A stretch of 56,907 nucleotides of DNA, counting the filler, from Platydemus manokwari (taxonomy: Eukaryota): the NCBI GenBank assembly GCA_037951405.1. It is 5 parts of 5 records of this genome, joined end to end, with 100 filler letters (N's around TTAATTAATTAA, not from the genome) between each part and the next. Parts side by side here need not be neighbours in the genome. Positions count along the whole stretch, not along the records: positions 9,608 to 20,011 come from JBBMOY011136439.1; 4 more parts are not named here. One strand, written 5' to 3'. Below the pieces are notes generated by a model. It ran no database searches. It was not told the origin of the DNA and worked only from the letters and a program-made list of their open reading frames with translations. Below, piece by piece: positions 1,464 to 56,592 of this stretch (position 1 is its first letter; each line of letters begins with the position of its first letter). The position numbers and the translations under genes are program-made.

Positions 1464-2762
1464 ATGGTTGAAAGCAACGTGTTAGAATTTTTAAAGTCCT
1501 TTGGGAACCATCTAGGTCTTGATGATGGAATTGATCAACTAACGTTCAAAGTCACTCCATTTTTGTTCCTTTTCGGATCGATTATTGTTACTTGTGCCGT
1601 TTACTTCAACGATGCTTTAGCTTGTTTTATTTCAACTAGTCAAACGGGAAGTGGATTTGATAAATATGTGAACAATTACTGCTGGACAGAAGGAACAATC
1701 GTATTGCCAAATCAAAACAGTATTCCAAATAATATGAAAGAGTGGGAAAATGCTCGCAAAGACGGATATATTTACTATTATCAATGGATACCTTTCTGCT
1801 TGGCTATCCAATGTATTATGTTGCTTATTCCATATATGATTTGGAAACATACGTATCTCAATCGATCTGGTTGTGATTTTACAAATTTGCTCAAGCAAGC
1901 CAAAGATTCGCAAAACAAAAACGGCGAAGAATCAACAGAAACTGTTAGAAAAATTGCCGAACACATGGAACAAGTTATTTATAGCCACAGAGACAACAGA
2001 ACTGGTGGAATATCAACGGTTAAAAGACGCGCTGCCTCATGGCTCGGTTTAATGGCTCCAAGCAAAAGGCAAGCAACACATTTGGTATTCTGGTATTTAT
2101 TGGTCAAAATTTTATATTTGGGAGTGATCTTCTTACAATTATTCATTATTCAATCTTTTTTTGGATCGACAAAGTCTCCATCGAAATTCGTAAGAGATTT
2201 GTTCAATGAAATTGTTGAAGGAAATACATTGCACAACACCACTATGTTTCCGAAAGTGTCATTCTGCCATTTGGGTAATATGAAACATCCAGGATTCAAA
2301 CATAATTCTTATATTACTCAATGCATACTATCAGTCAATATGTTGTCGGAGAAAGTTTACCTAGCTTTATATATATGGCTATTGCTTTTGACGGTAGTAG
2401 TTTTCATGAGCTTGCTATTGTGGTTATATAGATGTTTATTTTATTCCCGAGTCAAATTTATCAAGAAAGTTTTAGCAGACAATGACGTCGACACAAGGAA
2501 AGAAAAGCACATTATTCATGGTTTTATTAATGATTTTTTGAGACAAAATGGAGTTTTTACACTAAGAATGTTCCAATCTAATATGGGGCCAATGTTTACT
2601 TATCAATTGATAAATCAATTATGGATTACTTATAAGAAAACTTATTTTACCATGAATTTATCCAAGGCCTATCCTCCAAAGGGAGGAATTGATACGGTGT
2701 CAACTCTTCCAAAATTCGATGAGAAAATGTATTGCGACCAATCTGAAGATGCAATGTTATAA
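1464..2762 (+). CDS. inx: Innexin (gap-junction/hemichannel protein), intronless CDS
   Basis: DDGIDQL N-terminus, C...YVNNYCW first loop, YYYQWIPF signature, MFPKVSFC and QCILSVNMLSEKVYLALYIWL second loop, FLRQNGVFTLR tail; 4 TM segments; AATAAA just downstream. Confidence 0.97.
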   Translation: MVESNVLEFLKSFGNHLGLDDGIDQLTFKVTPFLFLFGSIIVTCAVYFNDALACFISTSQTGSGFDKYVNNYCWTEGTIVLPNQNSIPNNMKEWENARKDGYIYYYQWIPFCLAIQCIMLLIPYMIWKHTYLNRSGCDFTNLLKQAKDSQNKNGEESTETVRKIAEHMEQVIYSHRDNRTGGISTVKRRAASWLGLMAPSKRQATHLVFWYLLVKILYLGVIFLQLFIIQSFFGSTKSPSKFVRDLFNEIVEGNTLHNTTMFPKVSFCHLGNMKHPGFKHNSYITQCILSVNMLSEKVYLALYIWLLLLTVVVFMSLLLWLYRCLFYSRVKFIKKVLADNDVDTRKEKHIIHGFINDFLRQNGVFTLRMFQSNMGPMFTYQLINQLWITYKKTYFTMNLSKAYPPKGGIDTVSTLPKFDEKMYCDQSEDAML

Positions 2763-9507: not shown

Positions 9508-9607
9508 NNNNNNNNNNNNNNNNNNNNNNNNNNNNNNNNNNNNNNNNNNNNTTAATTAATTAANNNNNNNNNNNNNNNNNNNNNNNNNNNNNNNNNNNNN
9601 NNNNNNN
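9508..9607. other. Assembly spacer (N44-TTAATTAATTAA-N44)
   Basis: Seen directly; identical structure at four sites. Confidence 0.97.
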
Positions 9608-9619
9608 TAAAGCAAGTCT

Positions 9620-10072
9620 TTATTCAATTAAAGCATATTCTCTGACCCATTCTTTTACTTTTTCGTTGTATTGTTCTATGTTTGATAAATATAAGTGTGC
9701 TGCATCACCATTCAGTGGACTTCTTGGATTGGGATCTGTTAGAAGTGATGAAATGGATAGAAGTAATTTTTGAATATTCAATGATGGAGCCCAATTACTT
9801 TGTAGAATATCTACACAAATTTGTCCGTTATTGATATTTGGATGAAATATTTTCGTTTTAAAAGTGACTTTCGGTGGATAAAATGGATATTTGGGTGGTA
9901 AGATGATATTGATTTTGAATTTTCCATCTTGAAATGGAGATTGTTCTGGTCCTGGTATTGTTGCAGTCCATTGATGAATATCATTTTCATTTGGATGAGC
10001 ATTGAAATATGGAGTTTCTTCTAACCATTTCATTTCCATTTTCAATCGATTTATCATATTTCGATTGGTCAT
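9620..10072 (-). CDS. Ubiquitin-conjugating enzyme E2, UBE2D/Ubc4-like, divergent, intronless
   Basis: WTATIPGP..SPFQDGKF, YPFYPPKVTFKTKIFHPNINNGQICVDIL (HPN motif plus catalytic Cys), W.PSL..LLLSISSLLTDPNP.SPLN..AA.LY. Confidence 0.95.
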   Translation of the reverse strand: MTNRNMINRLKMEMKWLEETPYFNAHPNENDIHQWTATIPGPEQSPFQDGKFKINIILPPKYPFYPPKVTFKTKIFHPNINNGQICVDILQSNWAPSLNIQKLLLSISSLLTDPNPRSPLNGDAAHLYLSNIEQYNEKVKEWVREYALIE

Positions 10073-10599
10073 GATGTTGTTTGTATTTGTTAATAATTAC
10101 AAAATAATGGATTTAAATAAAACATTTTGAAAATAATTTTAAAATTTATCTAAATTATTATTGGTTAAAAAATATGAATTTATTTTTAAAAATTTTATTT
10201 CTTTAAAATTTAACATTTAAATTTTTTAACTATTTTTTAAATTAAAAAATGCATTTTTCCTTTTTTGTAAACTTTATAAAATTAAAATGAATTTTAAGCA
10301 AATAGGTCCAGGATCTTTTATAAATTAAATTTTTTGTTCAAATGCACTTAATTGAAATGAAAACAATTGGTCTCTAAGCTACACAAAATTATGCATTTTA
10401 TCTCTAAACATCATTGAAAGTTTTTACTGGCACAAAACCCATTATTTGAACAAAAAATCCATAAAATCACAGATAAAGCTTATCGAAATTTTGTGTTGTC
10501 CTCAGCTTTAAGCTTTTAAAATTTTTTAATATAAGTAATACAAAACAATTTTTTCATTAAAAATCTATAAAAATAAATAAATAAAATTGGTTGATTTCG

Positions 10600-11545
10600 T
10601 TAACAGACTTCACAAAATAATTTCTCATTATCGATTTTCTTTAATAGTTCAAGAAATTCTATGTCTTTCATCATCATTTGTCTCCGTCTATTTCCGGCCT
10701 GAAAAATATCAATTTATATCTATGTGTAATAATGATCAATATCACAAAAATCCTAATTATAAACAATAACAATACTTACATCATAATTAATAACTAATGA
10801 GTAAATTAAGATTGCCAATCCATAGAAAATCAACAAAGAAGGTATTAAATAAAGTTCGATCGATTCAATTTTCTTGATAATATCCGTTTTTTGGATACTC
10901 TTATCGAGGAACCAAATCGACGTAGCAGCATGCCATATACATAACACCATGATCATAACGATATTGCCGATAATGGTTTTGTCCTATAATTAGTGAATTG
11001 GAAATCTTTTATTGCTACGATTAGAGTTAATAATTGTGTTTCTAAAAATAAATATTTTACGTTGAGATGAACAATAGTAACAATTTCTTAGACCATATAT
11101 TCATAATTTCCTATCAATGTGATTGTAAGACGAAATCAGTCAATACCGATGCTACTGCAGTTGTCAGGATTACCCTTATCGCTTAAGTTGAAAGAAGGCA
11201 AATCTCTTCAAATGACTGAAATGAAATGAATAACTGAACACGCACACAATCACAACATATGGGTGTCTGTGTGTTCCTGTATCATTTTCAGTATTTAATT
11301 GTACTTTTATTATGTTCTGCCTTAACTTAATTCTCATAATCTTTATTTGATTGTTTTCATATTGAATAAAGGCAACTAACTCATACTCCGTTAACCTTTA
11401 ATTTTCAAAATAACCGCAATATTTTGTGCTTTTTTATTTAATTGATTTATATATCAATAATTTTAATAAATAACACTAAATCAGGGGAAAACATATTAAA
11501 CTTACATCATTATTGATAAATCTTACCAGATATGTCAGATAATGC
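10600..11545 (-). CDS. 3' exons (M3-M4 region) of a pentameric ligand-gated ion channel-like gene; 5' part not located
   Basis: Exon 11545-11527 encodes (x)HYLTYL; exon 10983-10780 encodes DKTIIGNIVMIMVLCIWHAA...LIPSLLIFYGLAILIYSLVINYD; exon 10698-10600 encodes AGNRRRQMMMKDIEFL...CEVC*. All junctions are GT-AG and in phase. The spliced YLTYLDK...LCIWHA motif matches the pLGIC M2-M3 loop and M3. Confidence 0.75.
11124..11506. mobile_element. Putative solo LTR or small insertion inside the channel intron
   Basis: Termini TGTAAG...CTTACA form a 6-bp inverted repeat with TG..CA ends; internal AATAAA; flanks tgat/tcat give only an imperfect TSD. Confidence 0.4.
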
Positions 11546-11599
11546 CTAAAATGAAATCAGTGAGTAATGTTTTACTTGAACTGAACTGGATTGTTTATC

Positions 11600-12900
11600 G
11601 GCTCCTCATTCAGGATCATTGTTATCCGAGTCCTCTCCCAGGTTGGCTTCTTTTTCTGTTGTTCTTCCAGGACTGTGTTTCTAAATTCGAGGTTCATCTC
11701 CTTTCCCGTATAATCACTTGTATATTGGTGAACGTGATATGCCATCGTTTTCTTTCAAACACTATCGATTTATGAATTTGCTTGGGTAGGAAGGGTTTCT
11801 CGGTCGCCTTACTCTTTTTCTGCTAATTTAGATGTGAGAGGTTTATCTCATTATATCCGAGGTTGGATTTTGCTTCTTCGATTCAGATATGCCCTATGTT
11901 GATGTCTGTTACATGGGTAATATCCTCGATATTCATTAGCTGATCCAGTGCTATAGCCGTGGCTTCTTCATCGATGTCACACTGGAGTTTCTTCATATAT
12001 GTTTGGTGCCACCTTTGGTTGGATAAAGTGATCTTCCCACTTTCCTTCCAGTTTGAGAAACATCTGTCGAATTTCGTCAGCATCATTCGCAGTCCTGAGC
12101 TCATGGAACTTTGTTATTTCGTATTCTGGTACGATCTTTTTCAAAATTTTGTATATCTTGAGTTGATTTAGGTTGACAAGCTCATGTGCCGCAATACATT
12201 TCGCTCTTGCTAGGTCACTTATGCCTAGAGGTCGATCGGTCGGTATTTGTTACACTTCAAGAATGTCTGCTATTTTGTATCCTACAAGGATGAGTTGGTC
12301 CACGATCTTATTTATTTGCTTGATAAAGGATATCTCGTCCCATTTATTGATTATATTAGCTTTGTTTACTTTATCAATATAGTCGTTTCGGAAATGTTTT
12401 ACATTGTGACGTGGTGACACTAGGGAATTTATAATCACTTTGCCTTGACAGCCGAGGATAGTAAGGAAAATGATGGCTGGCATAACCACGCTGCTTATGA
12501 GACTTATTGCAGTATCTTGGTGGCAATAAGCAGTGTCCTCTTTCTGAGTTCGTACTTCTCGAGAGCTTGGCAAGTGAAGGAGAGGTATCGATTGATAAAC
12601 TAGTTTGTTATATTTTAACAATATTCGGAAACAGGAGTACAGATGATGTTTAAAATATCATTGAATCCTAGTTCCAATATTAGAGTCGTAGGGACTTGTG
12701 GAAATTCGATTTGTCCAAAAGCGATGCGAGTATCACATTGATTTATCTCCAGTACCGTATGCAGATCCATTCAAATAGGTTCTAGTACACCACCAAGGTT
12801 TATTTGTGGTGCACAGATACATTTTTTCTTTTAGGTGTGCTTTCTTCGTAGTGGGAAACATTGTACTCATTGCGTGCTTTCCGGCTTGCTCCACGTAGAC
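11600..12900 (-). pseudogene. Accessory coding region downstream of integrase (unknown function)
   Basis: Interrupted frames read ..QIEFPQVPTTLILELGFNDILNII.., YNKLVYQSIPLL...IINKWDEISFIKQINKIVDQLILVGYKIADILEV, then a Lys/Glu-rich tail. Confidence 0.5.
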
Positions 12901-13620
12901 AACTGTAGTTATCTCAGATACATCAAATAAAAAGGTGTGTACTCTGTGCAGCGTTTCGGTTCGCAAAATAAACAGGAGGCTATATGGGCATCCCAATCCG
13001 TCTGAGCAGTGTTTGTCTAGGGTGCCAGCACGTTTGTTAGTGTCCCGTTGAACCTTTCAACCAACCCATCGGTCTGTGGGTGGTAAGGTGTAGTGTTCAA
13101 TTTAGTTATTTTAAACATCTTATAGATACAACCCAGGATATTGTTGAGAAATTCCGTTCCGCGATCCGTTAATAGCTTTTTGGTTACCCTGTATCTGTAG
13201 ACAATTTCTTCCACAAAGATTTTGGCAACCGTGCTTGCTTGTTTGTCCGGTATTGCATAAGCCTCTAACCACCGGGCAATGTAATCACAAAAAACTAACA
13301 TATGACGATCACCTAGTTTGGTTAGTGACAAGAGACCAACGAGACCCATTGCGACAATCTCCATGAGAGCAGTAGGAAGTGGCACAAGTCGTAAAGGGAA
13401 TCGACATTTGTTTCCTGTATTCCTGCCGGGTTGATATATCTTGTATGATACGCACAACCTTCTGACATTATTCTTCATTTTTCTCCATATATATTTTTGT
13501 TGAAGGCGGGACATTGTCTTTTTGACGGAAAAGTGTCCCCTAGGGTTCCATCGTGGTACTGTAGGAGAAGCGTTTCTTGGTGTGCCAGGGGCCCAATGAT
13601 AAGCCACCTGTTGTCTTCTT
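12900..13620 (-). pseudogene. Gypsy integrase (decayed)
   Basis: GHFSVKKT..RLQQKYIW, CDYIARWLEA, LLTDRGTEF, YHPQTDGLVERFNGTL. Continues past the stop at 13017 as DWDAHIASCLF...TPFYLMY. Confidence 0.92.
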
Positions 13621-13899
13621 CTATCTTCAACAGATTTTTATCAAACATCATTTTCCCTTGGTGCTTTTTTATAAACTTTGTGCACGATGGCTATGCGAGG
13701 AAATGAATAATCCCATTAGTTTCCCACTCCAAGGGAATGTTATCCAGTGGTAATAAATAGCTCTGAATTTCCTCATCTTCATTTTGTAACTTGCTCACTT
13801 CGGTATCTTGAGTCAGTGTGTGGACCACTGCTTAAACATTTTCTGTATTTATTTCGTATGTGTCCGGGTCGGCATGTGAAAGAGCATCGGCGCTTTTTC

Positions 13900-15100
13900 C
13901 TTGCGAAAACATATCTTGATATTTTATTGCTGTAGTTTGAGCGCCTAGCTGATGCGCCTAGACGCGGTGTCTCGATGCTGTAGCAAACACTGTAAGGATC
14001 GGTGATCGGTGAGTATATGTATCTCGTGACCATAAATGAAAGTTTAAAACTTTTCTACAGCATATACGATGGCCAATGCTTCTAATTCGATGACTGCATA
14101 GTTTTGTTCATGACTTTTTAATCCGCGACTGACATACGCTATGGCGTATTCATTTCCTTCATTGTCTATTTGTCCCAGAACTGCACCAATAACGTAACCG
14201 CTTGCATCGTCATAATGATGAAGGGTTTGCTCATGACTGGGTGTCTAAGAATTGGTTCAGCAATTACTGATTGTTTTAGAAACTTGAAAGCCTTTTCCTG
14301 TGCTTCCCACCATTTATTCTTTTGTAGTAGTTCAGTTAGTGACTGTGCGATATCAGCGCAATTTCGAATAAATTTTCGATAATAATTCACTAATCCCAGG
14401 AACTCTTGGACTTTTTTGACTTGAAATTGAGGGTATTGTTCCACCTTGGTGATATAAGCGCGGTCAGGCTTCGCTCCTTGTCCAGACACGATATGGCCTA
14501 AATATTTGACTTTTTTCGTACCCATTCGCATTTGGTAGGTTTGAGCTTCACTTGTGAGACGATTACGTTTTTCAATATCTCTACATCTCGCTCGTGCTCC
14601 TTATAGCCATTTCAGTAGACAATAACGTCATCTATATATACCATTGCGTGATGAACATTAGATTCATGGCCCTTTGAAATGTTGTTGGAGCACCGGTTAG
14701 TCCGAAAAGCATAACTGTGTATTCATATAGACCCTTGCCGTCGGCGAAGGCCCTGATAGGTATTGAATTCTCATGCATCAAAATATTGTTGTACCCGGTC
14801 TGTAAATCAAGGGTAGAGAATAAATTTACTTTACCAACTCTGATGACCATTTCATTTATTAGCGTTAAGGGATAATTATCCTTCCGTGATTGTTCATTAA
14901 CTTTTCGGCAATCGATTCACATGCGAATCGTTCCCTCCTTTTTTTTCACAAGGGCAATAGGCGATCTCCAAGGATAGTCTGGTCTGATCCGTTTTTGCTC
15001 GAGTAATTCGTTATTTTGCATCTGCGCTTCTGCGGTATGCTGGTTGGCATATTGGATGAGGGTTGAGTAATTCGATCCTATGTTCGATGAGATTACATTT
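13900..15100 (-). pseudogene. Gypsy reverse transcriptase / RNase H (decayed)
   Basis: PWRSPIALVKKK.GTIRM.ID.RKVN, FSTLDLQTGY, FGLTGAPTTFQRAM, VYIDDVIVY (~14627-14638), VKYLGHIVS, FLGLVNYYRKFI, DASGYVIGAVL, ELEALAIVYAV, LTDHRSL. Confidence 0.93.
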
Positions 15101-15499
15101 TCCTAGATCATTCTCGTGCTTTGCGAAAGCTTCTTAGTAATTATTGAGAAGTTTCGTGAGCTGCGTAAATTGTTGTGGAGTGATATCCTTCGATTGGTCT
15201 GTAATGTTTTCTGGGTAGTTTCTCTTGAGATTCCATTATAAATTCCGTAACTGCTCCATATTTAGTGTAGGAATAAAATTTTACCGGCTCTGATGATGTA
15301 TTTGAAATTCGTATTGGAATTCTTCCCTCTTGTACTCTAGCAATACATGCACAGACTGGCATGAAACCAACGCTTGGTTCGAATAATACTTCTTCAATAT
15401 TAGCAAGGCTGATTTCACCAAGACAGACGGTATCAATTCGAGGTGGGATTGTGATTTCTTCCTCAATATATACTTGATTCCAACGTTCATGTTAGTTCT

Positions 15500-15850
15500 T
15501 AGTGAGTTTAACCAAGGTTCCGGTTGTGCATTCATAGACCATGCTTTTTAATTGTCTGAGGACATCTTTTCCTACTACGTAGTCGTATGGACAGAGGTTG
15601 GATACTCTGACAGAGACTGTTAAGGTTTGACCAGTGATTTTCACCTTGCACGTTAATACCCCGAGTAATGGTAAAGGGTTTGATTCCTATAATAGTGATA
15701 TCCGTTTTCTCGATGCCTTGTAATTCATTCATATTGAGTACTCTTGGGTGGATAATAATCGAGTCGGCTCAGATATCGATTAATGCCATGACTGCCTGTC
15801 GATTAAGTTTCATTAGAACTAATTTGTGAGAATTTCTGTCATCCCTCATC
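15500..15850 (-). pseudogene. Retroviral-type aspartic protease (decayed)
   Basis: VMALIDI*ADSIII is a degenerate LID(T/S)GA motif, with Asp at ~15775-15777 and the Gly codon mutated to TGA. Confidence 0.75.
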
Positions 15851-16157
15851 TTGTAGTAATGTTCTGTGTATCCCAAAAGGATATGTCGATGTAACGCGGC
15901 CTCATCGGTATTTGATGGGTATTCCTCTTGGTGTTGTTGCAATGCCTCAATTGGGTAAACATGAGTTTCAGGCTCCTCTAGGGGTGCAGACTCTTTTGAT
16001 TGAGGGCTTGATAAAATCGTTGGGTCCTTTGAATATTTGCCTTAGGTTTCTTCATTGGTTTCCATATGACCTTTATCTCCGAGTTGAATCTTGATTCATT
16101 GTCTGAATTGTTTGGAGATCTTGAAGACCCTCTTGTGGTATAATAAAGTTCATTTCC

Positions 16158-16703
16158 TCATTGTGGAGGAGGCCGTCTGACAGGGTGATGCCTCTCCTTA
16201 AGTAATTGCATTACCAGTTTTGCCTCGGTTCTATGCTTCTTGTGGATTGCCTGGTTCGATATCATCGGACAAATTCCAAAAAGTAGTTTTGTTGAACATC
16301 TGAAAACTTCATACAAATGATAAGTAGTCATTATTTGATGTTNNNNNNNNNNNNNNNNNNNNNNNNNNNNNNNNNNNNNNNNNNNNNNNNNNNNNNNNNN
16401 NNNNNNNNNNNNNNNNNNNNNNNNNNNNNNNNNNNNNNNNNNCGGACAAATTCCAAAAAGTAGTTTTGTTGAACATCTGAAAACTTCATACAAATGATAA
16501 GTAGTCATTATTTGATGTTTTACTGTTTTGATTATCACAAATATGACGTAAATGCCAGTACATCCGGTAACAAAAGTTCCGAATGCAGTGAATCGTTCCC
16601 ATATCTGCCGTGCCACATTTTCTTCTGCTTTCTTAAAGTGATTCATTGTAAACAGGTGATCGTAATTCGGAACTGTATCTCCATTTTGGTAGATAGTTCC
16701 ACC
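16158..16703 (-). pseudogene. C-terminal membrane-anchor remnant of an envelope-like glycoprotein (chuvirus G / gB-like)
   Basis: RGGTIYQ..YDHLFTMNHFKKAEENVARQIWERFTAFGTFVTGCTGIYVIFVIIKTVKHQIMTTYHLYEVFRCSTKLLFGICP. An amphipathic W..F..FG segment, a TM helix and a Y.L..V(F/Y)..S..LL.. motif resemble chuvirus-type glycoprotein C-termini. Recognised by pattern only. Confidence 0.6.
16343..16442. other. 100-N gap flanked by a duplicated ~77-nt overlap (16266-16342 = 16443-16519)
   Basis: Identical sequence on both sides indicates unmerged contig ends. Confidence 0.9.
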
Positions 16704-17364
16704 TCTTTTACAGATGGCACAATTCAACTTCTTGTTTTCCCTATTGTCAGTTTGATTTGGTTTTTTCCATTGGTTCTTTTGCTGGTTCCTTGGTTTAGCA
16801 TTGTTTTCATATGTTGCGCACAATTGTTTCCCATTGCCTTGTCCTATTTCCACCAATCTGGCCTTTTGTACTAATTCATCAAATTCGTCCCACATATGGA
16901 GGCTCAGACTAGATCGAATGTGTGGGGTAAAACCATCCCACAAGTGATCCTTAACGTTATTCCTTGTATCCGCTAGCTAATTCGTTCTATCTCCATAGGC
17001 TCGTTCTCCGACATGTTCGCCTTGCATTTGCTTCCTTTTCTTGAATCGTTGCCTAAACAGATGTCCGGTATCTGCTGGCAATATGTTCCTCCCAAAGGCA
17101 TTTTTGAATTCCGTCCAAGTTTTTGGAGATGTTTCTACACTCATTACACAATTAAAACGTTCTCGTGCTATACCTGTTAAATAAATCGGTAGTCGTTTTA
17201 TCATTTTTTCCTGGCTGATACCGTGAGCTTATGAAAGTTGAAAATAATCAGACATAAACTCAGGATAGATGTTGGGTTCACCATTGTAGGGTTTAACTGG
17301 TATTTTAGCTTTCCTCGTTAGGTACTATGCGCACTGTAGGCGCGAATTTTTCGTTGTCAGACAT
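16704..17364 (-). pseudogene. Gypsy gag (decayed)
   Basis: ATG at 17364 (MSDNEKF..), then PVKPYNGEP, KRLPIYLTGIARERF, TWTEFKNAF, F..RKQMQGEHV, WDGFTPHIR, and a truncated knuckle CAICKR. Confidence 0.85.
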
Positions 17365-17440
17365 AGTTTATTAATCAAATAATTTATAGAGATAATATAA
17401 TATAATAGTTTATTTCAAAACTAATCCCGAGCGATTTCAG

Positions 17441-17459
17441 AATCACGTCGGGCTCACCA
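17441..17459 (-). promoter_or_regulatory. Primer-binding site complementary to tRNA-Trp
   Basis: TGGTGAGCCCGACGTGATT lies 2 nt after the LTR end ..AACA (17462). It differs by one base from the classical tRNA-Trp PBS TGGTGACCCCGACGTGAT. Confidence 0.88.
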
Positions 17460-17461
17460 AA

Positions 17462-17850
17462 TGTTAAAGATTGTCGGGTTGTCGATATAGTAATTACAAA
17501 TTCAAATTATAAATGTACAATTTGTACAAATTTGATCAGAAGGATTTAAATAGAATTAATAATAGTTGCCCTAGATTTTCAACTTATCTGAACTCCAAAC
17601 AGTTGCTGTTGCTATATCACTCGAGTGATTATTATAAAATAGTATTTAAAATATAAATGATAAATAAATAAAATAGAATAAATAGAACAATAAAATAGAA
17701 CAAAACAAAACAAGACAAAATAAAATATATTTTTTACAATAATTTTAAATAAATCAAGATGGTATTTGATATTGTGGGAGGAAAAAGGTGTGTGTCAAGA
17801 AAACAGTAAAAGGCGTACCGCTTAGATGCTCGGGTAAGGCTTTCGTGACA
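17462..17850 (-). repeat. 5' LTR of the gypsy element (distal end uncertain: 17738 or 17850)
   Basis: CA terminus adjacent to the PBS; candidate TG starts on the minus strand are TGTAAAA (17738) and TGTCACGAAA (17850). Confidence 0.55.
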
Positions 17851-18691
17851 AAAAGTTGAAAGTGGGGAACTTTTTAAGCAGGAACCTATATGATTTTAAA
17901 AAACCTCAAGAGTAGCCGTGGGTCGGTAATTAATAAAATAGTGAAAAAAAAATACTTATTGAATGCATCATAAAATAAAATTCTTCATATGTGTAGGATA
18001 AAAATTTTTCATACAATGAAGTATAAGCTTCTTCAAATTCTGCGGCTTCAAATAGTCATACAATAGCTTGAAATGTTCATACAATTTGTAGCTGTAATGA
18101 GTCGAAGTGCGAGTGCTGTCTGTTTATGCCAGTATATATACTATTTTGTGTCTTATTGTGAATCATGCATCTTGTTGCTATTTTTGGTAACATTCTAAGC
18201 TTGGTAGCATGTGTTGCTAAATTTAGCATATGTACAGCATAGGTTACTATTTTTAATTCAATGCGGATTTTCCTAATGACTTTAATGTCGATTAGTTTTG
18301 ATGCAGTAAAACAAATTTAAACATTTTATGGATATTTTGTAATTTCTGGCACTATAATTTCCTTAATTTGAAAAAAAATTATATTAATTTATTCTTATTT
18401 TTTAGTTAATTTGGTTGGTCAAAATGGCCTGGTCAGTTCCGCACAATATCTAACTTGCGGATCCCAATATTGATATTGTGAATATTATTTTTTGCATCAC
18501 TCTGATATTTGATAATCTTCTTTAATGGTATGGATACGTTTTGGAGTTGCGATTTAATTATTTCTAATATATTTATTATCAATCTGCAGACTCTTTTATT
18601 TTATCTTAAATCAGTCTTGAAGGTCTCAAATCCTATTGTATCTTATTGTTATTAACTTATTTAGACAACATAATCACTCTGGAATAGCGTT

Positions 18692-18693
<2 letters not shown>

Positions 18694-18730
<37 letters not shown>
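18694..18730. repeat. (TA)n microsatellite
   Basis: Seen directly. Confidence 0.95.
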
Positions 18731-18732
<2 letters not shown>

Positions 18733-19060
18733 GAAATAACAACAACACCGCTATCAAATAGATAGTGGGATGACAATCACTATCTGTAAGGAATAATGTA
18801 GTAACACTATGTTATAACATAGAATTATATTTAATGTAATAATAATACACTTTGAATAAATAAATGACTTCTATACGAACAGTAGATATCCTCGAAAAGT
18901 GGTTATTTAAATTGGGAGAAAATCAAATCAAAATATTTATGGACTGCTTGATAAATGATAAGTATAAATTGCCGATGATTTTATAAATCTTATAAATCGT
19001 AATAACTGTGACTACTGATCTATATAGGCATTGGTGCGTGACTTGTAGAAATTCTCTACT

Positions 19061-19430
19061 GTTGGGTATCAATCAAAAGGGTCACAAAAATCAAGAAAAA
19101 ACCATAAAAGGCTCAATACATACAAGCCCAATAAACACACGTGTCGTTAACCAATAAGTTTCTTTCTAATTTTAACTCAGATTTAGAAGTTAAGAATCAA
19201 CAGGCACATGTCTACCGATTACAGAAAGCTCAAATATCCGCCAATAGCATGAAAGTTATAAGAAAAATCACAAATAAGTCGATCCACAAACAAATTCAGG
19301 GAATTGAAAACGAAGATAGGCGACATCAAGCTGACACATCCGAGGGGTCTATAAAAGAGGTTGAATTCCATGGATTCTTGCCAGTCTATATTTCAAGGCT
19401 TAGCTTATGTGTGATTTAAGTTATCAGTTT
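19061..19430 (+). repeat. Dispersed repeat copy A (LTR-like); inverted copy at 44820-45190
   Basis: For example, caaatatccgccaat, gaattgaaaacgaagat, gaattccatggat and cttagcttatgtgtgattta match the reverse complement of 44820-45190. Contains TATAAAAG. Confidence 0.85.
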
Positions 19431-20011
19431 TTTGTTATATTTAAGTATTTACATACCTACAAAACCACACAGGCATAACAATCCCAGGTGTCATAAATGG
19501 AAAATTATAATTCGGAAAAAGGGACATAGCTAGACAATAACACTCATATAGTGATTGGCCACTTCCGAGTATACGAAATAGATAAATCCAATTGGAACTT
19601 GAGAATTACAAGATCAAATCAAACGTGATACAATAATTACACGCAAATCTCAAGGCTAAATATCGATTTAAAGATTATCCATTGCCAGTTGGAGGCAAAT
19701 TAGTATTTTTAGTATTTGAGTATTCTACTATGAAAAAGGATGTACTGAGTATCACTGCGCAGTAGAAAGTTAAATAGTAGAAGTTAAATTTGTAATCGCT
19801 TTATCATATTGCCTGGCTTACTCCGTAAACGTCATACAGCTGAAAATAGTCTGCCATGAACTCATGAAATAAGCCTGGCTCTCTGAGATATGGTTTGACA
19901 TTATCGTTAACTTGATAATTTGTGCTGTTCTTTTTTGGTTCCTTTTGTTTCTCTTGACGATTAGCGTTTACCCCATCATTGACGTATATTGACGATGGAT
20001 ATTTTAAGATC

Positions 20012-20111
20012 NNNNNNNNNNNNNNNNNNNNNNNNNNNNNNNNNNNNNNNNNNNNTTAATTAATTAANNNNNNNNNNNNNNNNNNNNNNNNNNNNNNNNN
20101 NNNNNNNNNNN
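20012..20111. other. Assembly spacer (N-TTAATTAATTAA-N)
   Basis: Seen directly. Confidence 0.97.
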
Positions 20112-25906: not shown

Positions 25907-28900
25907 ATGTCAAGTGAAGTTGCAAACGCCGCTGAAAATCAACCAGTTGAACCAAATAATCCAAATCAACCCAGGAATAATTTCTGGACAATGATGAAAG
26001 GATTCTTTTTCAGAATGATGATAATTTATTTTATCAGTAGCTTTTTCCGAAGATCACCAGCACCTGAAGCACAACCTGGGAATAGGTCACCGGTTCCTGT
26101 TCTTTCTGGAATTAATATTTATCAAAAAGGAACTTGGTTTGATCTCTACGTGTATACATCGGATATGCACTATTTTAATGATTTTTCTAACAATTCAAGT
26201 TTATTTTGGCATCTCAAAAATATCGAATATGGTGACTGGCATGCTGGTCCCAATGGTGATGGAAGTTTTGAAACTTTCAGTTATATTAATCCGTCAGAAG
26301 TAAATTATTTTTGGTTTTCAATGTTGATTATTAACGATTATTATCTTCAGAAATTGAAAAATAATGGTTCATTTTATTTGCATATTTATATTGTACCAAG
26401 TGGGCACAGTCCAGATCCATCTAATAAGAACTATGATAAGAAGCTAACAATATACAAGAGCAAAAGTTGGTATTTGTGCAATTGATCAATTGTTATACGT
26501 GTCATTTTTAAAATTTTAATCATTATTATGTAATGTTTGCAATATTATATCACATAGATAAATAGAATAATTTCGCAACCACTTGTAAATGAATAATGAA
26601 TGTCTTGATATCGTTTATTTGTCCATGATTTTGTAATTCAATTATTAATTACTAATAAATTATTTATTAATATATTCAATAGGGAAATTAATAATCTTTA
26701 AATCATAACAATTATTTTATAAATCATTTCGTTTAAAATTTCTATTAGGTTCAATTATTTATTTATTCAATGAATTAATTTGATCATCTTATTTAAATCT
26801 CATTCATATTTATCACCATGGTGATTGTAATTAATAATCATTTGAATATTAATTAATATTTTTCTAATTATTTTAATTGACATTTTGACCATATTAAATG
26901 CATATTAAGTGATTTTTATTGGTTTTTTGGAACATATTGGAAATTTATTGTTATAAATTCATTATTTGTTAGTGTTGACAAAATATAAGAAACGCAAATT
27001 AAAGCGCACCGTCAATCTATTGACCGGTGAAACCGTTACACCACATGAATTGAAGGCAAATCAAAGTATTGAATCGCATTTGCCACCAGTTACCCATTGG
27101 CATCCCAATATGACCATTCAATTATTGGATGATCATACATCATGGACACCTGGCGCTGTTCCTCCTCCGTTGAATGAGAGTAAAGGGATTTTTAACGATT
27201 TCTTTCAAATTTACTTTTGTTTTCTCATTAAGTGGTTGACTTTTATTCGAGCACGAGTGACTATTATCCTATCGTATTTCTCAATGATTATTGGAATCTT
27301 GCCCAAGATTATACAGTTGTCAACGAAACCGTTACGAAATTACCATTGAATTTGGTTTTCTCACCGATTTCCTTGTTTAAATTGCAACTATATGCTGCCC
27401 AATCGATGAGATCGAAATGGTACAGCGGTGTATTCGGTGATAATATGATGCAAGAATCTGATGAGGAACAAGATACATTGAAGGTATGGATTATATGATA
27501 TATTATATGGATTGATTATATATTATATGGATTGATTATATATTATATGGGTTGATTATATCTTATATGGATTGATTATATATTATATGGGTTGATTATA
27601 TATATGGATTGATTATATATTATTGGGATTGATTATATATTATATGGTTTGATTATATATATGGATTGTTTATATATTATTGGGATTGATTATATATTAT
27701 ATGGGTTGATTAACAATGCTATGTTCAGAAAACAATGCTAGATACAAATCCTTATCTGCTGGGAATGACAGTCATTGTTTCCATTGTTCACAGCATTTTT
27801 GAATTCCTGGCATTCAAAAACGGTAAGACAGGCATCTAATCGATTATATTTATATAACTGACCCATCATTAATGAAGATATTCAATTCTGGCGAAACAGG
27901 GAATCATTAGAAGGATTATCGGTTCGATCTGTATTCTTTAATGTTTTCCAATCTGTTATTGTTGTACTCTATGTACTTGATAATGACACCAATTTTATGG
28001 TGAAAGTATCTGTTGTACTTGGATTATTAATTGAGGTTTGGAAAATCAAGAAAGTGATCAATATCACGGTTAATCGAGAAAATTTAGTTTTCGGAATGTT
28101 TCCGAGAATATCTTTTGCTCATAAATCATCATATACTGAATCTGATACCAAGAAATATGATCAGGTGACATTGATTATATATTGATTCTATTTTATAATG
28201 ATTATATATTGATTCTATTTTATAATGATTATATATTGTTTCTATAATGATTATATATTGATTATTCTATAATGAGTATATATTAATATATTGATTATAT
28301 ATAGGTTATATTGATTATTATTAAAAATTCAATATTGATCATATATCGGTTATACTTTGATTTTATATCAGATATATTGATTATATATTGGTTATGTATT
28401 GAATAAACATTATTTATGTATTGATTATACATTGGTTATATTGGTCATATTTGTTATATTAGCTTTATATTGAGTATTATGATTTTTAATTTAATATTGG
28501 TTATATATTAGTTATAATTGAATTAATTATAATGTTTATATCATAAATTTGAAATCATTTATATATAAATTCAAGTAAATTAAAATGAATATTATTGTTT
28601 AATGTTAATAACATTAATGATTTATTTTCATTGATTAATTATTATTATTATTTATTGGCTATCAATTGATTTAAACATTGTTGGCATGACGCCAAATTTT
28701 CATTTACGATTTTTTGATTTAAAAATCAAATTATTTGTAGGCGTTGTCATGATCAATAAAGTTACAATATTGATATTATTAGATCATTTATAGAATGATG
28801 TTATATGGTGTTGATAGATTTATAATAATATATTATTATCATTATTATTGATATGGTTGAGGTGATGATTATAATGGGAATGTTACAAATATTATCAAAC

Positions 28901-31647: not shown

Positions 31648-31747
31648 NNNNNNNNNNNNNNNNNNNNNNNNNNNNNNNNNNNNNNNNNNNNTTAATTAAT
31701 TAANNNNNNNNNNNNNNNNNNNNNNNNNNNNNNNNNNNNNNNNNNNN
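31648..31747. other. Assembly spacer (N-TTAATTAATTAA-N)
   Basis: Seen directly. Confidence 0.97.
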
Positions 31748-44819: not shown

Positions 44820-45190
44820 TGCTGATTACTAAAATCACACATAAGCTAAGCTCTAAAGTTGCCGACCAAAGAAGACTGGCAGATATCCATGGAATTCATC
44901 TTTTATAGACCCATCGGGTGTGTCTGTTTAATGTCAGGGATCTTCGTTTTCAATTCGCTGAATTTGTTTGTGAATCGATTTACTTGAGATTTTCCTTATA
45001 TCTCCCACGTCATTGGCGGATATTTGAGATTGCTGCCGTATGTAGGCATGTACCTGTCGATTCTCAGCTTCTAAATATTGATTAACATTAAAAACGAATC
45101 TGATTGGTTAAAATATTTGTGTGTATTGGCCCTTTTTAGGGTTTTCCCTTGGTCCTTGGGACCCTTTTGATTGATTTGTGTTATACCCAA
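44820..45190 (-). repeat. Dispersed repeat copy B (inverted relative to 19061-19430)
   Basis: See copy A. Confidence 0.85.
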
Positions 45191-47348: not shown

Positions 47349-47448
47349 NNNNNNNNNNNNNNNNNNNNNNNNNNNNNNNNNNNNNNNNNNNNTTAATTAA
47401 TTAANNNNNNNNNNNNNNNNNNNNNNNNNNNNNNNNNNNNNNNNNNNN
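47349..47448. other. Assembly spacer (N-TTAATTAATTAA-N)
   Basis: Seen directly. Confidence 0.97.
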
Positions 47449-54501: not shown

Positions 54502-56592
54502 CTAATCAACTTCTTCCATCTTTTCGGCATCTTCATCATCAGCAGATGGAGTCAATTCAGGTACAGATTCGATGATTGGTTCACTTTCTTCTTCATCAAT
54601 ACCCAAACCTAATTTGATCATTCTGTGGATTCTGTTTCCATGAACTTGTGGGTCTTCCAAATTGAATCCAGAGCAAAGGAGAGATGTTTCGAATAATAAG
54701 CAAACCAAATCTTTCACAGCTTTGTCGTTCTTATCGTTTTCGACTCGTTTCTTCAAAGACATGATGATAGAATGATCTGGGTTGATTTCCAAATGTTTCT
54801 TGGCAGCCATGTAACCCATGGTTGATGAATCTCTAAGAGCTTGAGCTTTCATGATTCTTTCCATATTAGCTGACCATCCGTATTGAGATGTGACAATACA
54901 ACATGGTGATGAGACCAATCGGTTTGAGACGGTGACTTTTTCTACTTTCTTGTCAAGAACTTCTTTCATTACCTTGCAGAGTGATTCGTAATCAGCAACT
55001 TGTTCTTCGAATCGTTTCTTTTCTTCTTCATCTTCAGGTAATTCCAAACCTTCTTTGGTTACACAGACCAATTTCTTACCGTCGTATTCTTTCAATTGTT
55101 GTACACTGTATTCATCGATTGGATCAACCATCAACAAAACTTCATAGCCTCGTTTAACCAATCTTTCAACAAATGCAGAATTGATGATAGTTTCTTTATT
55201 TTCACCAGTAATATAGTAAATGTCTTTTTGGTTTTCCTTCATTCTTGAAACATAATCTTTAAGACTAACCAATTCATCACCACTTGAGGTTGAAGCATAT
55301 CTCAAGAATTCTGATAATTTAGCACGGTTTACACTGTCTTCGTGGATACCGAGTTTAAGATTCTTTGAGAATTGTTCATAGAATTTATTGTAGTTTTCTT
55401 TGTCTTCCATGATTTCTTCGAACAATTCAATACATTTCTTGACAATGTTCTTTCGAACGACTTTCAAAATCTTGTTTTGTTGAAGCATTTCTCTGCTGAT
55501 GTTCAAAGGTAAATCTTCACTGTCAACAACACCCTTGATGAAATTCAAGTATTCTGGGATCAAATCTTCACAGTTGTCCATGATGAAAACTCGTCTGACA
55601 TACAATTTGATGTTGTTTCTCTTCTTTTTGTTTTCAAACATATCGAATGGTGCTCTCTTTGGACAGAAGAGAAGAGCTCTGAATTCCAATTGACCTTCAA
55701 CTGAGAAGTGTTTCACAGCCAAATGATCTTCCCAATCATTGGTCAATGATTTGTAGAATTCAGAATAATCTTCTTGACTGATATCATCAGGATTTCTGGT
55801 CCAGATTGGTTTAGTTTTGTTCAATTCTTCTTCATCGATGTATTTTTCTTTGATGGTCTTCTTTTTCTTTTCATCGGATTTTTCACCTTCTTCTTCATCT
55901 AAATCTTCAATCTTTGGTTTTTCTTCAGTTTCATCATCAGATACTTCAGTTTCTCTTTCTTTTTCAACAACCAATTTGATTGGATAGCCGATAAATTGAG
56001 AATGTTTCTTGATTATTTCTTTGATTTTCTTATCATCCAAGTATTCGGTTTGATCTTCTTTCATGTGAAGAATGATTTTAGTACCTCTTCCAATTGGTTC
56101 ACTGTCATCGTTCTTGATGGTAAATGATCCACCGGCTGATGATTCCCAAAGGTATTGTTCATCATCATTGGATTTGGTGATTACTTGAACTTTATCAGCA
56201 GCCAAGTAAGCTGAATAAAATCCAACACCAAATTGACCAATCATAGAAATATCAGCACCAGCTTGAAGAGCTTCCATGAAAGCTTTTGTTCCTGATCTGG
56301 CAATTGTACCGAGATTGTTGATCAATTCGGTTTTTGTCATACCAATACCGGTATCGTACAAAGTCAAAGTGTTGGCATCTTTATCTGGAATGATTTTGAT
56401 CATCAATTCTTTTTGGCTGTCCAAAACTGATGGATCAGTCAAACTCTTGTATCGGATTTTATCAAGAGCATCACTGGCATTGGAAATCAATTCTCTGAGA
56501 AAGATTTCTTTGTTGGAATAGAAAGTATTGATGATCAAGCTCATCAATTGAGAGATTTCGGCTTGAAAGGCAAATGTTTCAACGTTGTCCAT
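54502..56592 (-). CDS. HSP90: Cytosolic heat shock protein 90
   Basis: [69 protein letters not shown]-terminal MEEVD; intronless CDS. Confidence 0.99.

Follow-up and report, generated by a model that had tools for sequence, protein, structure and literature searches.

A probable dead copy of a Burro-like GAG-ENV-POL Ty3/gypsy element in Platydemus manokwari

A minus-strand LTR-retrotransposon remnant of Platydemus manokwari (assembly GCA_037951405.1) carries an envelope-like segment between gag and protease, and the question is whether this order belongs to the element's family or only to this copy. The window, i.e. the whole stretch of DNA analysed (56,907 nucleotides, five parts joined end to end), has a GC content of mostly 20–35%, that of AT-rich animal DNA, and the remnant is contained in an island of 33–42% GC at about 11,000–17,500. 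Judged from sequence, the remnant, about 6 kb in size, is in all likelihood a dead Ty3/gypsy copy of the Burro-like GAG-ENV-POL type (an errantivirus in the wide sense) that underwent a deletion and decayed thereafter. The gag-env-pol lineage proposed in the initial annotation is real; the arrangement, however, has already been published (PMC6431247, PMC13524379), and the window copy is a decayed new member of that lineage. As a fossil, the locus by itself is of little weight; the gag-env-pol gypsy group gains one more lineage, and a set of about 20 relatives is now available for reading the membrane topology.

Gene order and decay of the window copy

The features of the element, from its 5' end, are as follows (P numbers here and below denote database proteins).

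17442..17459, minus strand: PBS-like 18-mer, probably for tRNA-Trp, directly after an ...AACA end
16722..17364, minus strand: capsid part of gag, beginning with the ATG at 17364; stops at 17231 and 16979 and, close to the start, one frame change
16698..16721, minus strand: CCHC zinc knuckle, first half only; CAICKR at 16721–16704
16443..16697, minus strand: what remains of env, from the end of the ectodomain stem through the amphipathic membrane-proximal helix and the TM to the start of the cytoplasmic tail; PF24664
16266..16442, no strand: probable assembly artefact, consisting of a 100-N gap (16343–16442) and a 77-bp exact repeat of 16443–16519
15978..16265, minus strand: remaining env cytoplasmic tail and linker to the protease; TGA at 16160–16158
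15180..15977, minus strand: aspartic protease and protease-RT spacer domain; matches P0042 aa 1604–1887
13891..15223, minus strand: reverse transcriptase, connection and RNase H; the frame changes several times and is interrupted by stops
12876..13801, minus strand: integrase, zinc finger and core; Integrase_H2C2 and rve
11973..12875, minus strand: degraded post-integrase coding stretch; TM-like segment at about 12510–12454, hydropathy 2.42

The pol order PR-RT-RH-IN of Ty3/gypsy elements is found in the window, collinear with P0042 and others, and with P0042 the collinearity extends from gag to the integrase. The gag part is recognized as Retrotrans_gag (E 9.8e-5) and is 37% identical to P0042 aa 9–204 (E 4e-34), with identities to the same protein of 55% in the RT, 61% in the RNase H (RT_RNaseH_2, E 8e-6) and 54% in the integrase, where the similarity to relatives ends about 70 aa past the core. 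The protease-RT spacer is conserved between the window and the relatives and gives no Pfam dUTPase match; two single-frame pieces of the protease region that were scanned matched neither a Pfam protease nor a dUTPase. Decay is evident throughout: 13 stops occur within the 1447 codons of the element that were checked, one of them (TGA at 15771) inside the protease catalytic motif, a frame change lies near 15685 in the same region, and at least nine frame changes separate env from the end of the integrase. An active element requires intact ORFs and a full ectodomain, and the window copy has neither. The missing ectodomain, the stops and the frame changes make an active element less likely, while descent from the group is untouched by them.

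The termini are less distinct. The first 12 nt of the PBS-like 18-mer differ by one mismatch from the tRNA-Trp 3' 12-mer given in supplement 1 of PMC13524379, and the ...AACA end beside it may be a candidate 5' LTR boundary. No LTR pair was found between 17440–20000 and 9620–12900, a view bounded by gaps at 9508 and 20012, and the LTR search of the window returned only short AT-rich chance matches. None of the three purine runs close to the 3' end of the element makes a convincing PPT. A second gag N-terminal fragment, from a related element, lies at 19813–19899 (minus strand), adjoins the gap at 20012, and is 59% identical over 29 aa to the gag start of the main element.

Three-frame translation of the minus strand reproduces exactly the succession quoted in the initial annotation, in which a helix, a TM and a second hydrophobic motif come directly after CAICKR without a change of frame. 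The residues encoded at 16703–16443 (minus strand) correspond to the C-terminal stem, the membrane-proximal helix and the TM (at about 16586–16530, hydropathy 2.04) of a chuvirus/Monjiviricetes-type glycoprotein. The suspected homology to chuvirus-type glycoproteins is borne out by PF24664 (Monjiviricetes fusion glycoprotein), which matches residues 104–175 of the 16976–16443 frame with an E value of 4.2e-11 and a score of 42 bits, above the curated cut-off of 27. The top ESM Atlas cluster for the remnant is 92% PF24664 (score 0.90, 181 shared features), and the segment is 61% identical over 61 aa to P0001 and 39% identical to the env of P0042; as sequence similarity, this is far beyond chance. 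The match covers positions 519–590 of the 653 in the profile, and with some tail this is all there is: no env gene is present, and env survives in the window copy only as its membrane-anchor end, situated between the half knuckle and the protease. The tail itself (16334–16224) matches P0042 aa 1473–1509 with an E value of 5e-5, and P0003 and P0005 are similar.

The second hydrophobic motif was considered as a second TM and rejected on hydropathy, which is 0.55 in the window and 0.68–1.43 in 17 of 18 relatives (one being without the anchor), with P0015 as an exception at 1.71; a second TM would also place Pol in the lumen. In 12 of 17 relatives Cys-Pro stands at a constant distance from the motif, which is better read as a putative membrane-associated cytoplasmic helix ending in Cys-Pro.

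The knuckle of the window copy consists of CX2C only, the histidine and the last cysteine being absent, and merely 40 aa separate it from the tryptophan before the TM, whereas this distance is 849–1408 aa in all ten relatives whose knuckle is complete, P0042 having 1251. About 810–1,370 aa are absent at approximately 16700, where we place the putative deletion junction; the missing part comprises half of the knuckle, an internal signal and a 14-Cys ectodomain. By an in-frame internal deletion the env stem would have become attached to the half knuckle, and the stops and frameshifts would have built up afterwards. Deletion as the cause is drawn from comparison with relatives at 37–61% identity rather than with sister copies from the same genome.

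The in-frame junction and the approximately 213 real codons without a stop, from 16976 to 16161, could also suggest that the short gag-to-TM fusion was retained as a functional product, either as a domesticated fragment with a membrane anchor or as a non-autonomous subfamily. We regard this as highly improbable, however, since a random deletion preserves the frame one time in three, two stops lie upstream in gag, and the remnant has no signal sequence for normal membrane placement. The integrase moreover has a similarly long open stretch (206 aa), so the stop-free stretch around the env remnant shows no selection. Decay after deletion remains the preferred reading.

The open frame was described as running past the TGA at 16160–16158 to the TAG at 15980–15978, with the -1 frame then leading to the protease motif near 15780. 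These elements of the description stand, but the frame passes through 100 N (16343–16442) whose flanks are duplicated, 16266–16342 being identical to 16443–16519 over 77 bp, and the second hydrophobic motif occurs twice for this reason. Gap and duplicate together add 177 nt, and because these amount to 59 whole codons the same frame is found on both sides. No tandem repeat accounts for the duplicate, and the gap is most likely an assembly artefact in which two overlapping contig ends were placed in succession. The gag-env join and the join of env tail and pol flank the gap on opposite sides, both in ungapped sequence, so that neither junction depends on the gap. The gap is unlike the four spacers between the joined parts (9508–9607, 20012–20111, 31648–31747 and 47349–47448), each of which reads N44, a 12-mer with stops in all frames and N44, and is not biological.

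The gap does sit inside a repeat, and the second gag fragment at 19899–19813 implies more than one family copy nearby, which leaves room for a scaffolding chimera, in which a gag-env contig and an env-pol contig from two copies of the family were joined through the shared 77 bp. Such a chimera is improbable given that the overlap is 100% identical in a heavily mutated element and that both sides of the gap share the same best relative, P0042; even if it were true, each contig has its own junction and the gene order would stand.

Relatives with the envelope inside one reading frame

The relatives considered here are database ORFs, machine-predicted. An exhaustive phmmer search with the gag end and env piece, hits being kept at E≤0.001, gave 30 matches, the best stretch falling on the env part in 29. 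PF24664 was found in all 23 of the matches that were scanned (seven short ones were omitted), and in 11 of these 23 a protease domain follows it in the same protein. A word-index search with the same piece against proteins of 313–2000 aa had confirmed none of 121 candidates, a weak negative that the exhaustive search overturned. When the env of P0004 was used as the query, all 12 proteins obtained carried env and protease and nine of them RT and integrase as well, in a search confined to proteins of 1444–4598 aa and hence biased toward fusions.

It is clear from these proteins that the gag-env-pol order is held in relatives. Seven of them (P0004, P0034, P0036, P0037, P0040, P0041 and P0042) have a knuckle or gag, PF24664, protease, RT and integrase in this order in one ORF, and among the proteins whose domain positions were examined none has env after the integrase. 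P0031, a sister protein in cluster 6, runs without interruption for 4844 aa. Other env-bearing relatives end before the RT (P0003, P0009, P0011, P0015, P0016 and P0039), so some members of the clade may split pol off. A programmed -1 frameshift before the protease was also considered for the window element and is unlikely, as the relatives run continuously from env into the protease; the shift probably reflects decay of this copy.

The pol domains place the window in the same group. All 57 matches of the integrase core carry rve and RT_RNaseH families, and the top 11, at 50–54% identity, score 214–241 bits, the next one scoring 179. Five of these 11 carry PF24664 in the same protein; the other six, without a gag or env family, begin at or after the protease region. 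In the integrase tree (64 rows) the window falls inside a 19-row clade (100/99) together with 11 env-in-ORF proteins. The RT phylogeny, which the initial annotation had called for, comprises 47 rows and places the window as sister to P0042 (98/90), both belonging to an 18-row group supported at 94/95. Both trees are midpoint-rooted, omit rows covering <80% of the query and contain no named reference element. The terminal branches of the window are long (0.87 and 0.9), which leaves its exact place within the clade unsure. With seven such relatives, and with integrase and RT of the window grouping with them, the earlier proposal that the intact family encodes a fusogen inside its gag-pol polyprotein is upheld.

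That part of a chuvirus-like glycoprotein gene instead entered an ordinary gag-pol gypsy element, as an event specific to this copy, is extremely improbable. Standalone chuvirus-like G proteins also match the segment (P0023, E 1.6e-4), and captures of this kind are known in BEL/Pao elements (PMC7642597); nevertheless, the best long matches are retroelement polyproteins and not viral G, the pol of the window belongs to the env-in-ORF clade, and the env tail runs on into the linker as it does in P0042.

Several of the database proteins have features of their own. P0065, a single gag-env-pol ORF outside the clade of the window, carries PF24664 together with a weak herpesvirus gB match (Glycoprotein_B, E 0.004), and its position in another pol clade, as judged from sequence, fits repeated origins of the gag-env-pol order. 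P0004 (HBK71150.1) is named as a protein of a Flavobacteriaceae MAG, yet it is an animal-type gag-env-pol polyprotein, probably present through bin contamination; a scan of prokaryotic genome contigs with it gave 21 pattern matches, none of which was confirmed. Protease-like motifs number up to six per polyprotein by pattern (P0031, P0011, P0034, P0037 and others), some of them after the integrase, and ankyrin repeats and C2H2 fingers are found in some relatives.

Proposed membrane topology and the region after the integrase

The arrangement in the intact relatives suggests a one-ORF polyprotein that would thread the ER membrane. Gag would stay cytosolic, and an internal hydrophobic signal would start translocation of an ectodomain of about 540 aa with 14 cysteines, of class III (gB/chuvirus-G-like) type. 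A TM of the kind retained in the window copy would stop the transfer and bring protease, RT, RNase H and integrase back into the cytosol, after which signal peptidase and the element's own protease would release the parts. The proposed product would be enveloped particles in which env is made one-to-one with Gag and Pol. A signal-like segment precedes env in 14 of 20 proteins, with none above the threshold in the other six, and the ectodomain has exactly 14 cysteines in 13 of 17 proteins, the remaining four not being measurable by the pattern.

The gB-like fold of the env of GAG-ENV-POL errantiviruses is taken from PMC13524379. A single-sequence AlphaFold2 model of the relative P0019 had a mean pLDDT of 33. 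In a PDB sequence search with the same protein, no solved glycoprotein matched the ectodomain among the matches listed (60 of 85), all of which were weak Bcl-xL/Bcl-2 matches to residues 9–82.

Beyond the integrase, a pair of hydrophobic segments with the spacing of a signal and a TM is present in 15 of the clade's 18 database proteins (P0004, P0017, P0031, P0034–P0037, P0040–P0044 and P0046–P0048) and in none of 45 proteins outside the clade, two of which have one such segment. The exceptions within the clade are P0032, which ends early, P0038, with no hydrophobic segment, and P0045, with one. The post-integrase segments match no Pfam family and are hypervariable, only 10 pairs among the 15 aligning at E<0.05. 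In P0004 and P0017 the segment contains, by eye, what we take to be an FN3-like motif. The corresponding stretch of the window has neither a Pfam match nor detectable similarity to the post-integrase segments of the relatives, and by its position it may be a remnant of the second membrane protein of the clade.

These segments allow the tentative idea, which we consider possible but rather unlikely, of a two-glycoprotein entry machine in one four-pass polyprotein, in which the conserved gB-like fusogen between gag and protease would be joined by a post-integrase type I protein acting as receptor binder or trigger. The proposed protein would have an internal signal and roughly 130–410 aa up to its TM, would evolve fast, and might be likened to gH/gL or gD, which serve herpesvirus gB. 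If true, this reading would bear on cell entry and attachment of errantiviruses with only a gB-like fusogen, and how such gB-only elements enter cells is a question posed in PMC13524379. No description of a second post-integrase membrane protein was found in the literature searched; figures, sequence files and two key papers lay outside that search and may bear on the point.

Comparison with described elements and other features of the window

The closest described system is Burro (GYPSM1), a giant gypsy element of dugesiid planarians whose single polyprotein has env in frame, placed between gag and protease (PMC6431247). Its env matches mononegavirus fusion glycoproteins and its gag has CCHC knuckles; Arkhipova and Yushenova (2019, PMC6431247) presented it as the first such case, with decaying copies in Dugesia japonica. 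As in Burro, gag and env of the window element share a frame, and seven relatives have the single ORF. The sizes differ: the window copy is about 6 kb and its closest relative 3181 aa, as opposed to 4873 aa for Burro1 and an internal region of up to 25 kb (PMC6431247). The element is for this reason termed Burro-like and not filed as Burro; the trees contain no Burro sequence, and no named one occurs among the matches. Burro has a dUTPase-like domain between PR and RT (PMC6431247), where the spacer of the window gave no such match, and in the accessible text of PMC6431247 a membrane protein after the integrase is not mentioned. The accessory domains of Burro (BCL2-like, ubiquitin-like, ankyrin, BIR and MATH) are absent from the window, where the region concerned is missing. 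In the relatives, weak matches were obtained, between gag and env as described for Burro, to BCL2-like (P0019 residues 9–82, E 0.001) and to ubiquitin-like domains (P0036 845–900, E 0.018; P0042 607–639, UBX, E 0.006), whereas ankyrin repeats are clear in P0031, P0047 and P0048; BIR and MATH occurred in no protein scanned. The BCL2-like, ubiquitin-like and ankyrin matches tie the clade to Burro in style.

The nematode endogenous retroviruses (NERVs) reportedly have one continuous gag-env-pro-pol ORF and are said to be restricted to chromadorean nematodes. TTTTCAG is a nematode-type splice-acceptor motif, and it occurs 18 times in the window against 18.9 expected, i.e. without excess, which speaks weakly against a host of that kind. 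With the present element the NERVs share the character of a metavirus with a captured RNA-virus glycoprotein before pol (Sacco et al. 2022, doi 10.1099/jgv.0.001739), and PMC13524379 cites that work for nematode elements.

Chary and Hayashi (2026, PMC13524379) described GAG-ENV-POL errantiviruses with an HSV/gB-type ENV in Nematoda, Bryozoa and Platyhelminthes, including six elements of Schmidtea with up to 215 copies, and found the gag-env-pol order not to be monophyletic. The window element resembles them in its Ty3/gypsy pol, in a gB-type env related to chuvirus G and in the gag-env-pol order, but theirs are intact elements and the window copy is not; in the accessible text of that paper, figures aside, an in-frame polyprotein and a second membrane protein are not discussed. 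The same chuvirus-like glycoprotein family is likewise found inside LTR retrotransposons of mosquitoes, the Anakin BEL/Pao elements (Dezordi et al. 2020, PMC7642597), but these have a BEL/Pao pol and insect hosts, whereas the pol of the window is of the Ty3/gypsy type.

The remainder of the window has no tRNA genes and includes several protein-coding loci, among them an intronless innexin at 1464–2762 (plus strand), whose nearest atlas clusters are from nematodes and flatworms, an intronless HSP90 at 54502–56592 (minus strand), a divergent ubiquitin-conjugating enzyme at 9620–10072 (minus strand), Ulp1 and CLPTM1. Just 3' of the element, at 10600–11550 (minus strand), are exon-like stretches from a host gene that encode hydrophobic helices; two of these stretches had no Pfam match. 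A dispersed 370-bp repeat is present as two inverted copies, 75% identical, at 19068–19427 and 44822–45175, and a minisatellite with a period of 17–20 bp occupies 27484–27735.
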